From UHGV virus genome UHGV-0036008: a stretch of DNA of 42,664 nt; one strand, 5' to 3'. Both the position numbers and the translations under genes were made by a program. Numbering within the stretch: the first letter of the stretch is position 1; the number at the start of each line of letters is the position of its first letter. The stretch is from a virus. The notes below the pieces were generated by a model. It saw nothing but the letters and a program-made list of their open reading frames with translations, was not told the origin of the DNA and did no database searches. Shown here piece after piece: positions 2,966 through 41,153 of this stretch.

Positions 2966-3612
2966 GCTGCACGTTCCCGCCCCTGGTTGTCTGTTGGTGA
3001 CAGCGGAGCATTGCTGAATGCATTTGTTAATCCGCCAATATCCAACGCGTATCCAGGGTGTAGTTGCACTGCCGGGTCTTCGCACTGATTACCCCAAACA
3101 TCGAAGCCATGAGACGTCTGGCGGGCGAACAGTTCAATGCGAGAAACATCGCCTAATAATTGCACAAGTTTTTCACGAACGATATCTGGCTTTCTTGAAT
3201 GCTCAAGCCGCGGTGCGGTAAATGACTGAACGATCCCTGCATTAATGCGCGTAGGTAGTTTTCCCTTTACCGCAAACAGGCAATCTTCACTATTGGCGCG
3301 AGTCATGTGTCCCATACCCATAACCAGTTTATCTGGTTGTCGACTACCACATTTTATCCACGTGAAGCCCTTCATGGTCATCAGACGGAATCCCCAGGCT
3401 TCAACAACTTTTAGCGCTTCGAGTGGTTGTGTTGGCACCCACCACATGGCCAACAGACAGTTTTCATCGGCCAAATCCCACACAGGAAGGCGGCAGATAT
3501 CCATCACACTCATAACCGGATATTTAAAACTGGCACCGCGATTACCATCTGCGGCTTTGTCCCGGTATACCCAGGGTGGATCTGCATAGATTAGTGTGTA
3601 TTTCTTAGTCAT
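2962..3612 (-). CDS. DNA N6-adenine methyltransferase, MT-A70/Dam-like (orphan)
   Basis: N-terminal TLIYADPPW motif (DPPW catalytic motif); no adjacent restriction endonuclease gene seen. Confidence 0.75.
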   Translation of the reverse strand: MTKKYTLIYADPPWVYRDKAADGNRGASFKYPVMSVMDICRLPVWDLADENCLLAMWWVPTQPLEALKVVEAWGFRLMTMKGFTWIKCGSRQPDKLVMGMGHMTRANSEDCLFAVKGKLPTRINAGIVQSFTAPRLEHSRKPDIVREKLVQLLGDVSRIELFARQTSHGFDVWGNQCEDPAVQLHPGYALDIGGLTNAFSNAPLSPTDNQGRERAA

Positions 3613-7735: not shown

Positions 7736-7936
7736 ATGGAAATCATTACACGTATTGATGCCGCAAAGCGCGGACTTAAACGCTACTACACCGGAAAACC
7801 ATGTAAGCATGGACATGACAGTGAACGCTGGGTTTACAACGGACACTGTGTTGAGTGCACCATGGAATCAAACCGTCGCATCAGGGCAGAGATTAAGCAG
7901 ATCATGATTAATTCCTCCCCACAACACTCAAGCTGA
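7736..7936 (+). CDS. Hypothetical small Cys/His-rich protein (possible zinc finger)
   Basis: 66 aa from internal ATG; GKPCKHGH...NGHCVEC motif; start uncertain (TTG at 7673 or ATG at 7700 also possible). Confidence 0.3.
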   Translation: MEIITRIDAAKRGLKRYYTGKPCKHGHDSERWVYNGHCVECTMESNRRIRAEIKQIMINSSPQHSS

Positions 7937-7951
7937 TAGCGGAGATTAATC

Positions 7952-8767
7952 ATGAGCAGACATGCAACAGATTGGGCCTGGGAGACAGATCCAGGTAGCT
8001 CATCATTAAAGCTCATACTGCTCTCGATGGCTGACAGAGCCGATGAATATAACCTCTGCTACCCCAGCATAGAACGCCTCGTTAAAGACACTTGCCTGAA
8101 TAAAAAAACCGTGCAGGCCGGGCTTATATCGCTCATGAAAATGGGGCTTATTTCAGATACCGGAGAGAGAAAGGGAGCGACAAAAAGAGTGCGGGTTTTC
8201 TCTCTTAATATAACCAAAAACGGGAACATTAAAGGCAACCGGGAGGGGGGCAATGAACCCGAAAACGGTAATGTTACCGAAAACGGGAATATACCCAAAA
8301 ACGGGATGTTGAATGATCCCAAAAACGGGATGTTGAATGATCCCAAAAACGGGATCCAGAACCAGTCATATAACCAGTCATTTAACCAAGAGAGGGAGAG
8401 CAGGACAAAAACCGGGGATTCTGTGCCTCATGACCCCGTCGCAAACAACGCCGTGATGAATAACTTTGTTCCTCCTGGTGGGCCAGGGCAATTAGGTAAA
8501 TTTGTCATGCATGAACAATGGCAGCCATCAGATGACTTTCTTCGGAAAAGCTCATTGCAGGGAATCTACCTGGACAGTCTGCCAACGGCACAGGAACTTG
8601 CAGAGTTCAGAATTTACTGGATGGCTGAGGGTAAGGCATACCATCAGGCACAGTGGGAGCAGAAGCTGGCAAGGAGGCTGCAGATTAGCAGACAGAAGCA
8701 ATCAACATTACCTGATAACAACGTTCCGCACTGGAACAGCCCTGAAGCATGGGAGGATTTCTTGTGA
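7952..8767 (+). CDS. Replication initiation protein (O-like; N-terminal winged helix, C-terminal DnaT-like domain)
   Basis: 271 aa; N-terminal LKLILLSMADRADEYNLCYPSIERL pattern; internal PKNGMLND peptide repeats encoded by iterons; precedes lambda-P homolog. Confidence 0.6.
   Translation: MSRHATDWAWETDPGSSSLKLILLSMADRADEYNLCYPSIERLVKDTCLNKKTVQAGLISLMKMGLISDTGERKGATKRVRVFSLNITKNGNIKGNREGGNEPENGNVTENGNIPKNGMLNDPKNGMLNDPKNGIQNQSYNQSFNQERESRTKTGDSVPHDPVANNAVMNNFVPPGGPGQLGKFVMHEQWQPSDDFLRKSSLQGIYLDSLPTAQELAEFRIYWMAEGKAYHQAQWEQKLARRLQISRQKQSTLPDNNVPHWNSPEAWEDFL
8222..8395. repeat. Iteron array inside replication gene (probable ori): AAAACGG(G/T)A units, two exact 24-bp repeats CCCAAAAACGGGATGTTGAATGAT, then AACCAGTCAT x2
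   Basis: Read directly from sequence 8222..8395. Confidence 0.55.
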
Positions 8768-9549
8768 ACAACGTTTTTACCGCGATACAAAACCGTGACG
8801 GAGAAGCCCTTTCTCGCATGTCAGGTTATGAGCATCAGTACACCAACAATGACAACGTGGTGAACATGTCAGCAGAGAGGCTTGTTGATGCCCTTTTCAA
8901 ACAGCTGAAACAACTGTTTCCGGCGGCAGTGGTAACCAACCTGAAGACGCAAGAGCAGGAAGTTGCTGCAAAACAGCAGTGGATTGCTGCGTTTGCCGAA
9001 GGGGGGATCCGAACCCGTGAACAGGTTTCTGCTGGTATGCGCCACGCCCGCGCCAGTGAATCTCCGTTCTGGCCGTCGCCAGGGCAATTTATCAAGTGGT
9101 GTAAAGACAGCAAGATGGTTCTTGGCGTCACCATTGACGATGTGATGGCGGAGTTTCACCGGTACAGCAAGGAAAAAAGTTTATATCCTGGTGGTCCCGA
9201 AAGATTCCCGTGGCGACATCCGGTTATGTACTGGGTCGTATGTGATACCCGCCGTGCAATGTATCAGCGCCAGCTTAGCGAGATTGAGGTTGAGAAACAC
9301 GCGCGCAGGCTGCTCGATGATTGGGCGAAAAAGGTGGCTTCCGGACAGCAGATACCCGATCCGGTGATCAGCATACAGGCAAAGCCAGAACCCATGAGTA
9401 CACCTCCGGACACAGGGAGAGACGTTTACCATCCACCAGGGCGAAGTTTCGGGTGCATGCCTAACGCCGCCACCCTGGGGGGAATAACACCGGCGCAGTG
9501 GCTGATGGAGGAATACAGGCGGGGAAAGGCGGCAGGATTTATCAAGTAA
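8764..9549 (+). CDS. P: Replication protein P homolog (helicase loader)
   Basis: Strong similarity by eye to lambda P (FPAAVVTNL...QWIAAFAEGGIRTREQVSAGMRHARASESPFWPSPGQFIKWCKD); GTG start overlapping upstream stop (GTGA) with GGGAGGA RBS. Confidence 0.8.
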   Translation: MNNVFTAIQNRDGEALSRMSGYEHQYTNNDNVVNMSAERLVDALFKQLKQLFPAAVVTNLKTQEQEVAAKQQWIAAFAEGGIRTREQVSAGMRHARASESPFWPSPGQFIKWCKDSKMVLGVTIDDVMAEFHRYSKEKSLYPGGPERFPWRHPVMYWVVCDTRRAMYQRQLSEIEVEKHARRLLDDWAKKVASGQQIPDPVISIQAKPEPMSTPPDTGRDVYHPPGRSFGCMPNAATLGGITPAQWLMEEYRRGKAAGFIK

Positions 9550-10011: not shown

Positions 10012-10072
10012 ATCGACGATCTTTTTAGTTATCAATGTAATCAATAAGTTATGTGGATAAGCGAGGATAAAG

Positions 10073-10729
10073 ATGGAAAGTAATATCAAAGGGTTAGTTG
10101 CCGCCGGGCATGAGATGGCTTCGGAACTGAAAGCAGAATGTGGTGCCGTTGATATGCGCAGTGTGGCAAAGCTGATCAGCGATTTGGCAACGCAACTGGA
10201 AGTGCAACTGGTGCGTGCTAATGCGCTGGCCGAAGACCAGCAGAAAGCGATTGAGTCAATTAAGCAGGCTGATGCGGCTGTTAAGTTGGCACACGAGAAG
10301 TTTTCGGCGCTGGCGGCGGAGAATGCGGGGCTTAAGGCCTTCAAAACCGCCGTTTATCAGCAGATGGGCGTCGGATGTGATGCTCCTGAATTCTCCATTA
10401 CGACAGGTTTGAGTAACTTACGTCGTTTTGCTGACACACTCCACGCCATTGAACGTGAGTTCTTTACCAAAGAGCTACCTGATGAAGAGCACGAAGGCGA
10501 AACATTCAATGAATGTCCACTTAGCTGGGGAATGAGCGTCGAACAGTACGTTTCCGAGTTTCGCAAATGCCTGGCTGAAGTGCGGGCGCAGGGATTGGAG
10601 ATGTTTGCACAGAAATGTAACTCAAAATCCGAACAGTCGCTTGCATCTGATATACGCGATAACTGGAAACTACTCGGTGAGCATGCGACTGACTTTGCCG
10701 CAGAGCTTCGCAAAGGAGGCAACCAGTGA
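10073..10729 (+). CDS. Hypothetical coiled-coil protein
   Basis: 218-aa ORF with good RBS (GAGGATAAAG); no recognisable motif. Confidence 0.45.
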   Translation: MESNIKGLVAAGHEMASELKAECGAVDMRSVAKLISDLATQLEVQLVRANALAEDQQKAIESIKQADAAVKLAHEKFSALAAENAGLKAFKTAVYQQMGVGCDAPEFSITTGLSNLRRFADTLHAIEREFFTKELPDEEHEGETFNECPLSWGMSVEQYVSEFRKCLAEVRAQGLEMFAQKCNSKSEQSLASDIRDNWKLLGEHATDFAAELRKGGNQ

Positions 10730-16042: not shown

Positions 16043-16119
16043 TGGCGTGGCATGCAGGATTCGAACCTGCGACCAACCGCTTAGAAAGCGGTTGCTCTGT
16101 CCAGCTGAGCTAATGCCAC
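16043..16119 (-). tRNA. tRNA-Arg (anticodon UCU), phage-encoded, argU-like
   Basis: 77-nt cloverleaf read from reverse complement: acceptor GTGGCAT/ATGCCAC, D-arm GCTC/GAGC, anticodon stem ACCGC/GCGGT with loop TTTCTAA, T-arm GCAGG-TTCGAAT-CCTGC, 3' CCA. Confidence 0.85.
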
Positions 16120-40982: not shown

Positions 40983-41153
40983 CATGGCATTTTTCATGGT
41001 ACTGATTTCCGGTGACGGTATATAAAACGGTACGGGAAAAATTGAGATTTGGAAAAATGTTATCACTCAATTGGTTATGGTTATCGTAAATAATTGAGTG
41101 GGAATGATTCCGCGTCTGGCACAGCCAGGCACCTGATGGCATGAAATGCCGCT

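Follow-up and report, generated by a model that had tools for sequence, protein, structure and literature searches.

The replication origin of bacteriophage lambda lies midway along gene O and consists of iterons together with an AT-rich tract (PMC7466680), and is annotated as such in NC_001416. Lambda possesses four iterons, against six in Shiga toxin (Stx) phages (PMC7466680). A different route to helicase loading is that of the PriA-PriB-DnaT preprimosome of Escherichia coli, in which the C-terminal domain (CTD) of DnaT forms filaments on single-stranded DNA (ssDNA) at restart forks and marks the DnaB loading site (PMC13377028). Here, I have analyzed a repeat array found in the viral genome UHGV-0036008, a stretch of 42,664 bp (hereafter referred to as the window) that, judged by its sequence, is a phiV10-like E. 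coli phage of the genus Uetakevirus. The array lies within the phage's own replication initiator gene, and I propose that positions 8213–8417, in the part of this gene coding for the interdomain linker, are probably an origin of theta-type replication. An original prediction, based on the letters of the window, had described an iteron array and probable origin at this place. This is supported by the gene context, namely a phrog_1032 initiator and a P-type helicase loader, and by comparative evidence: the repeats are conserved as DNA across a family of relatives, they are co-inherited with the N-terminal domain of the initiator, and a natural chimera, in Edwardsiella phage GF-2, carries the same cassette in front of a part of lambda O.

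An exact search of the window for AAAACGG(G/T)A identified all six of the predicted copies, on the + strand at 8217, 8262, 8280, 8298, 8322 and 8346, and one further copy at 41024. For comparison, 0.76 matches are expected by chance in the whole window, and none of 100 shuffles reached seven. The six units span about 8213–8354 (∼140 nucleotides (nt)). The interval of 8222–8395 initially given for the array therefore contains elements that are indeed present, but its start is off, as the first unit begins at 8213 (8217 for the motif itself). Start-to-start spacings are 45, 18, 18, 24 and 24 nt, each a multiple of three. Tandem Repeats Finder reports CCCAAAAACGGGATGTTGAATGAT in 2.6 copies at 100% identity (8294–8355, score 124), corresponding to the perfect tandem 24-mers of the original prediction, an 18-nt unit in 2.8 copies (8257–8306, score 65), and AACCAGTCATAT in 2.4 copies (8360–8388, score 51), corresponding to the short repeat that had been noted twice after the 24-mers. 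These three overlapping or adjacent repeats, at 8257–8388, are the top-scoring tandem repeats of the window. As had also been noted, the array is in frame with the open reading frame (ORF) 7952–8767 and encodes PKNGMLND repeats; the peptide reads TKNG, PENG, TENG, PKNGMLND twice and PKNG, then NQSY NQSF NQ.

Together with their flanks, the units form inverted repeats, the best copy being GATCCC-AAAAAC-GGGATC. The consensus is ATCCC-AAAAAC-GGGAT for the units of the window, and GTCCC-AAAAAC-GGGAC for those of the family described below. The six units lie within the initiator ORF between its two domains, in the linker that separates HTH_36 (residues 18–67) from the DnaT domain (residues 184–252). 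Terminator-like matches on the minus strand at 8302–8345 were discarded, as they consist of the iteron dyads and of the T-run complementary to the A-tract, and the counts in the promoter and terminator scan are at chance. An Rfam scan identified no RNA family in the array region. The features of the locus are as follows:

7952–8767, + strand: replication initiator gene (271 residues), with an HTH_36 N-domain, a repeat-encoding linker and a DnaT-like ssDNA-binding C-domain
7952–8212, + strand: part coding for the N-terminal DNA-binding domain (residues 1–87), the predicted iteron-recognition module
8213–8223, + strand: iteron 1, ACCAAAAACGG, whose left arm is imperfect; iteron 2 starts 45 nt downstream
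8258–8268, + strand: iteron 2, CCCGAAAACGG
8276–8286, + strand: iteron 3, ACCGAAAACGG
8294–8304, + strand: iteron 4, CCCAAAAACGG, where the perfect 24-nt tandem repeats begin
8318–8328, + strand: iteron 5, GATCCCAAAAACGGGATG, with 5-nt dyad arms (ATCCC/GGGAT) flanking AAAAAC
8342–8352, + strand: iteron 6, GATCCCAAAAACGGGATC, with 6-nt dyad arms; origin-proximal, at a fixed distance to the GAAYC boxes
8357–8391, + strand: second conserved element, with three (G/T)AACC boxes at a 12-nt period, their starts being 8359, 8371 and 8383 (AACCAGTCATAT in 2.4 copies)
8384–8417, + strand: purine-rich tract, ending in a degenerate half-unit, ACAAAAACCGGGGA; its position matches that of the lambda A-rich tract
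8492–8743, + strand: part coding for the DnaT-CTD-like domain (residues 181–264)
8764–9549, + strand: lambda-P-type helicase-loader gene, with a GTG start

Domain identities were fixed by Pfam and PDB matches. The initiator matches Pfam HTH_36 at residues 18–67 (E 1.8e-10, over the gathering score) and the Pfam DnaT domain PF17948 at residues 184–252 (E 1.1e-15), and aligns over residues 1–269 to phrog_1032, annotated as ‘replication initiation protein’ (E 1.3e-108). It is 97–99% identical in nucleotide sequence, and 96.7–99.3% in protein sequence, to the corresponding genes of the phiV10 group. The gene that follows matches PF06992 (E 6.2e-57) and phrog_109, ‘P-like helicase loader’ (E 5e-93). 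It begins with a GTG that shares bases with the stop codon of the initiator, in the sequence GTGA at 8764–8767, which suggests that the two genes are translationally coupled. This start was picked by analogy with the 786-nt coding sequence annotated in phiV10, EC.W1-9 and pHL15EC-2; the longest ORF would begin at an alternative ATG at 8749, and would overlap the initiator gene by 19 nt.

The arrangement is that of the lambda origin inside gene O, as the original prediction had proposed: in both phages the origin, putative in the window, lies within the initiator ORF, in the linker between a DNA-binding N-domain and a loader-interacting C-domain, and a P-type loader gene directly follows. In both, the sites are dyads in which an A-tract separates a C-rich arm from a G-rich one (lambda ATCCCTCAAAACGAGGGA, window ATCCCAAAAACGGGAT). 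Iteron number is also polymorphic in both groups and alters the length of the protein (PMC7466680 for lambda and Stx phages), with 4–9 units in the group of the window. The differences are nonetheless considerable. The gap between CCC and GGG is of 6 nt in the window and 9 nt in lambda; the window possesses six units, spaced by 18, 24 or 45 nt and encoding in-frame peptide repeats, whereas lambda possesses four, spaced by 20–24 nt, with no peptide repeats; and in place of the very AT-rich 40-bp tract of lambda, the window has phased (G/T)AACC 12-mers together with a purine-rich tract. Pfam assigns the N-domain to HTH_36, and that of lambda O to Phage_rep_O, and the C-domain is DnaT-like and not lambda-O-like. 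Homology to lambda O was therefore rejected, as the Pfam families differ, BLASTP returns only E 0.071 over 17 residues, and hhalign gives a probability of 4%. The description of the gene as ‘O-like’ holds for function and arrangement, but not for sequence homology: the initiator is a functional analogue of lambda O, and not its sequence homologue.

The initiator of GF-2 (gene at 1501–2343 of the fetched region, followed by a P gene) possesses an N-domain of the window type, iterons and GAAYC boxes, which are then followed by residues 156–299 of lambda O (62% identity, E 2e-67). At the nucleotide level, the junction coincides with the right edge of the lambda AT-rich tract (GF-2 tccgagaattctgacgaatcctcagac, lambda tcagagaattctggcgaatcctctgac). 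Read from this junction, GF-2 is a natural swap of the whole putative origin-recognition cassette, placed in front of the P-interacting half of lambda O. Since the cassette stands in for the lambda O N-domain, iterons and AT-rich tract together, no other single observation argues as strongly that the equivalent segment of the window is an origin with its recognition domain.

In order to compare the array across relatives, two sets of loci were used. The close set comprises five annotated relatives and 80 near-identical IMG/VR loci, and is useful for copy number, not for divergence, since searches of viral contigs yielded near-identical phages only. It shows 4–9 core units and 0–5 copies of the 24-mer, and in nearly all cases this polymorphism is in frame; a few of the 80 near-identical loci have truncated initiator ORFs. 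In Escherichia phage YDC107_2 (CP025713.1; 1250–1560 of the fetched region), the A-runs of the iterons carry extra bases (A5 to A6, plus a G) that frameshift the initiator, which is annotated as fragments; these may be homopolymer sequencing errors, or the prophage may have decayed. The wide set was obtained by an alignment search with the N-domain, keeping one genome per species, and adds 80 further prophage loci with 40–87% identity, for a total of 85 loci. The hosts include Enterobacterales, Vibrio, Pseudoalteromonas, Marinomonas, Acinetobacter, relatives of Desulfovibrio, Burkholderiales and Sphingomonadales.

Homologues sharing only the N-domain, at 35–50% identity, are found in GF-2, in PPompW prophages, in Vibrio phage H20 and in Acinetobacter phage AP22, and all possess arrays of the same kind at the same position of the gene, with units such as CCCAAAATTGGGA in GF-2, CCCGAAAACGGTAC in H20, and CCCAAAAACGG, CCCATATACGGG and CCCAAATTTGGG in AP22. 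Conversely, no such array was found in the initiator region of Salmonella phage SPN1S, which belongs to the same genus as the window but shares only the DnaT-like C-domain. Across the 85 loci, CCVRAAAACGG (allowing up to one mismatch) occurs at 7.18 per kb between nucleotides +250 and +560 of the gene, against 0.14–0.38 per kb upstream, inside the N-domain, and downstream. The dyad unit CC-N6-GG is enriched about 20–50-fold just after the N-domain. These position-restricted counts replaced a first de novo k-mer census, which was noisy in AT-rich genomes. The type of iteron is therefore co-inherited with the N-domain across the family.

The same loci bear on whether the repeats might be no more than a low-complexity peptide linker (PKNG/MLND, NQSY) generated by slippage, with no role for the DNA in cis. 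Within the window, the six units are all read in one frame, at spacings that are multiples of three, so that the window alone cannot separate a constraint on DNA from a constraint on peptide, and the argument rests on the relatives. Some features of these relatives fit a peptide constraint, as copy number grows and shrinks in frame among the closest ones, and P-x-x-G is conserved as a peptide in many. However, the 181 plus-strand matches of the motif are distributed over frames 0, 1 and 2 as 115, 41 and 25, with two or three frames in use at 30 loci, and many units are spaced by distances that three does not divide (17, 22, 25 and 33 nt, among others). The same DNA is consequently translated as PKNG, PKTE or SQKR depending on frame, and inverted copies yield PFFP or SRFS. 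A motif read in three frames and in both orientations indicates that the constraint acts on DNA and not on peptide. The units also keep a fixed CCC and GGG in place of synonymous codons, as a DNA constraint predicts, and are dyad-symmetric as DNA, while the GAAYC element that follows them is likewise kept in three frames. The frame data essentially rule out a pure peptide linker, and I regard this explanation as highly improbable.

I next consider the symmetry of the sites. The consensus of 298 distinct units is yAGTcCC-AAAAAC-GGgACw. At the second and third positions outside CC/GG, flank complementarity is 0.65 against 0.48 and 0.55 against 0.35, respectively, above all of 1000 shuffles, in a control that ignores shared ancestry. 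Such dyad symmetry would fit binding by a dimer. The central hexamer is also informative in Acinetobacter, where one N-domain subclade has AACAAY, and another AAAAAC or AAAAGT. As the centre tracks the N-domain subclade within a single genus, the site variant follows the protein and not the host.

This last observation is relevant to the possibility that the sites are bound by a protein other than the initiator, either a host factor or the product of the small ORF at 7736–7936. The latter lies upstream of the initiator, as do a divergent two-HTH repressor and a cro-like gene; it corresponds to phrog_1081, of unknown function, and its conservation in phages of the phiV10 group is compatible with such a role. 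In more distant relatives, however, other genes lie upstream: GF-2 has a cII-like gene, PPompW has YdaT, and Vibrio phage H20 has a methyltransferase. The motif nonetheless stays with the N-domain in hosts as diverse as Enterobacterales, Acinetobacter, Desulfovibrio relatives and Sphingomonadales, and its variants track the subclades of this domain. As for host factors, motif scans identified no DnaA box within 8200–8400, and no consensus for the integration host factor (IHF) in the array. Binding by another protein is therefore very unlikely. A DnaA-dependent, oriC-like reading was similarly rejected, as the array has no boxes and neither DnaA nor IHF matches exceed chance expectation in the window.

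The array is followed by a second element, which includes the AACCAGTCAT repeats singled out in the original prediction and is shared by the whole family. In 78 of the 85 loci, the last unit is followed by N5-(C/A)RGAAYC, then by one or two more GAAYC-like boxes with a period of 11–12 nt, and in many by an A-rich tract, TCTAAAAATAAAAA, immediately after the boxes. The density of box pairs is 2.8 per kb in the zone after the iterons and 0.11 per kb elsewhere; phiV10 possesses one 12-mer more than the window. The junction between last unit and GAAYC is read in three frames, by 63, 12 and 3 loci (for example G-T-Q-N-L-P or W-D-T-E-S-P), which shows that this element is also conserved as DNA. I consider the boxes at 8357–8391 as a candidate unwinding element or ssDNA-binding site.

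In composition, this region is not exceptional. The segment 8360–8400 has 40% GC and is not extreme in stability, and the + strand is 75% purine in 8380–8419. As the flanks of the array are only moderately unstable, no claim is made here for an AT-rich unwinding tract such as that of lambda; an unwinding element at 8357–8417 is inferred from position and periodicity, not from composition. In another interpretation, the units are initiator-binding sites for autoregulation, copy control or incompatibility, through titration or handcuffing, and unwinding takes place elsewhere, for example in the AT-rich intergenic segment 10012–10072, which was the sole alternative candidate seen. Plasmid iterons serve such dual roles, and the modest AT-richness of 8360–8400 is in line with this interpretation. 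Furthermore, 10012–10096 includes, within one of the least stable segments of the window, a perfect DnaA box, TTATCCACA (10052–10060, minus strand), with an IHF consensus match on either side (10039 and 10084); no other IHF match occurs in the window. On the other hand, 10012–10072 possesses no repeat array, and DnaA-box and IHF matches are no more frequent in the window than chance would give. Throughout the family, an element with an 11–12-nt period, at a fixed distance, and an A-rich tract follow the last unit, and the GF-2 cassette replaces exactly the iterons and AT-rich tract of lambda. Sites devoted to control, with unwinding elsewhere, are thus an unlikely explanation, although less so than binding by another protein. 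The 10012–10096 region is just upstream of a gene starting at 10073, and may be a regulated promoter or a chance occurrence.

The initiator's C-terminal domain provides a possible link between the array and helicase loading. A stretch of 85 C-terminal residues can be aligned, with no gaps, to the DnaT CTD (PDB 6aep, 9zbt and 4ou6; phmmer E 8e-21 to 2e-19). Mutations have shown that Y127, W128, K133, F135, K143 and R146 of E. coli DnaT bind ssDNA (PMC4132743); the equivalents in the initiator are Y222, W223, K228, Y230, K238 and R241, so that five are identical and F135 is replaced by a tyrosine, all six being kept or conservatively replaced. The initiator is not a full DnaT, as it scores 85.1 bits against the NCBIfam DnaT equivalog NF002770, below the cut-off of 201, and covers only positions 86–169 of the profile. 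It lacks both the N-terminal domain of DnaT and the acidic linker that binds PriB. It would also be localized by iteron-specific binding, in contrast to the recognition of fork structure by PriA and PriB, and its partner loader is of the P type, not DnaC. SPN1S (1030–2310 of the fetched region) encodes an initiator with a DnaT-like C-domain and an unrelated N-domain, followed not by a P-type loader but by a DUF1064 homologue. Helicase recruitment must therefore differ within Uetakevirus.

From these elements, a mechanism can be proposed for an origin at 8213–8417. Dimers of the N-terminal HTH_36 domain would bind the six dyad units, and the bound dimers would build a nucleoprotein complex, similar to the ‘O-some’, on ∼140 bp of A-tract-containing DNA. 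Strain from this complex would open the (G/T)AACC boxes and purine-rich tract at 8357–8417. The DnaT-like C-domains, concentrated by the array, may then cover the single-stranded DNA so exposed and, in the manner of DnaT at restart forks, designate where the helicase is to be loaded. The lambda-P-type protein encoded just downstream would deliver the host DnaB.

Parallels can also be drawn with other replicons. Iteron plasmids (RepA, RepE, pi, TrfA) similarly combine a winged-helix initiator with repeated initiator sites beside an unwinding element made of repeated 11–13-mers, and the binding of a plasmid Rep protein to the ssDNA of the unwinding element provides a precedent for the role proposed here. 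In contrast to these plasmids, the sites of the window are inside the initiator gene and not beside it, and they are dyads and not simple direct repeats; no Rep_3 or RepA-type Pfam match was found in the initiator, even at E up to 10.

A further parallel is the ydaU-ydaV pair of the Rac prophage. YdaU of E. coli K-12 possesses a DnaT-like C-domain and a central linker that encodes its own repeat array, consisting of four copies of AAGCAGATGTTCAA and the inverted copies TGTTCAAACA and TGTTTGAACA (2972–3078 of the fetched region). The repeat sequence is unrelated to that of the window, the N-domain is DUF1376, and the partner, YdaV, is DnaC-like in place of P. Rac is reported to have an active origin, oriJ (PMC3945230), and the array in the ydaU linker is possibly this origin, a candidate at this stage. 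The presence in ydaU of another N-domain and of its own array, on a DnaT-like C-domain, fits the same modular rule.

Two circular records, entered as plasmids but in fact derived from phages, lend weak support to autonomous replication. Two E. coli assemblies list as a plasmid a complete phiV10-like genome, circular and of 41,027 bp (pHL15EC-2, NZ_CP079771.1). In the 8,461-bp circle pZ1323HEC0067-2 (NZ_CP148379.1), a related DnaT-like initiator and P are the only replication genes; dicA/cro/ydaT are also present, as are rem and hokD of the Qin type. For neither record does MOB-suite give a replicon type.

Several points weigh against an origin at 8213–8417, to which the single frame of the window units and the shared ancestry behind the symmetry test, both mentioned above, also belong. 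Each of the circular plasmid records may be explained by phage induction or by assembly. The unit spacings (45, 18, 18, 24 and 24 nt) are not multiples of the helical turn. In nearest-neighbour duplex stability, the flanks of the array are moderately meltable, with 8360–8400 and 8180–8240 among the least stable 9% and 5% of 40-mers, respectively, and many intergenic regions are far less stable. Finally, a search of the literature, which did not extend to subscription journals, found no description of an origin or iterons for phiV10 or epsilon15, or of the motif CCAAAAACGG. The RefSeq record of phiV10 contains no origin feature, though promoters and terminators are annotated, and neither do the other annotated regions that were fetched.

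More broadly, the array may be one instance of a widespread and apparently undescribed cassette, consisting of the HTH_36 domain, CC-N6-GG dyads and phased GAAYC 11–12-mers, that travels in one piece between phages of Gamma-, Beta-, Alpha- and Desulfo-proteobacteria and is placed on interchangeable helicase-recruiting C-domains. In the window, where the C-domain is of the DnaT type, the initiator would then amount to the ssDNA filament of the restart primosome, tethered to an origin. Iteron-bound dimers would start such a DnaT-like filament on the strand of the GAAYC boxes, and the filament, in place of a C-domain of the lambda O type, would pass the site on to P-DnaB. I put this wider scheme forward tentatively, as a possibility with somewhat less than even chances. 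The presence of iterons in an initiator gene is expected; what is noteworthy is the breadth of the cassette, the conservation of its DNA across frames, and the prospect of an origin-tethered DnaT domain.

For the phiV10- and epsilon15-related phages of E. coli O157, the analysis proposes a concrete origin, unannotated in the records examined, which would be useful for engineering, replicon typing and prophage annotation. The combination of dyad unit and GAAYC boxes may serve as a DNA signature to flag origins in hundreds of prophages. The two genes would also constitute a simple system for the role of the DnaT C-domain in helicase loading, tethered to a defined site and paired with a P-type loader, complementing recent structures of the preprimosome. 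In addition, a motif kept across three reading frames is a clean natural example of a coding segment constrained as DNA.

A phiV10-type module of repressor, initiator and P, with 97–98% identity, is also present in the records of Escherichia phages BP9 (PP488543.1, 133.9–136.8 kb) and PH444 (PP350014.1), which are 138 kb and 115 kb long, respectively, the former being classified as Vequintavirus. In BP9 the module is near the end of the record. In neither case does it look like a real part of a large lytic phage; a chimeric assembly, or contamination by the contig of a temperate phage, seems to be its source.

Elsewhere in the window, Rfam identifies a C4 antisense RNA (34206–34289, minus strand) beside isrK (34314–34390, minus strand). 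This pair corresponds to the P1/P7-type antisense immunity arrangement for antirepressor control, here within a phiV10-like podovirus genome. A match to the sRNA-Xcc1 family (64 bits) is found at 2095–2184 on the minus strand, and a tRNA-Arg(TCT) gene is present inside this phage-like window at 16043–16119, also on the minus strand.

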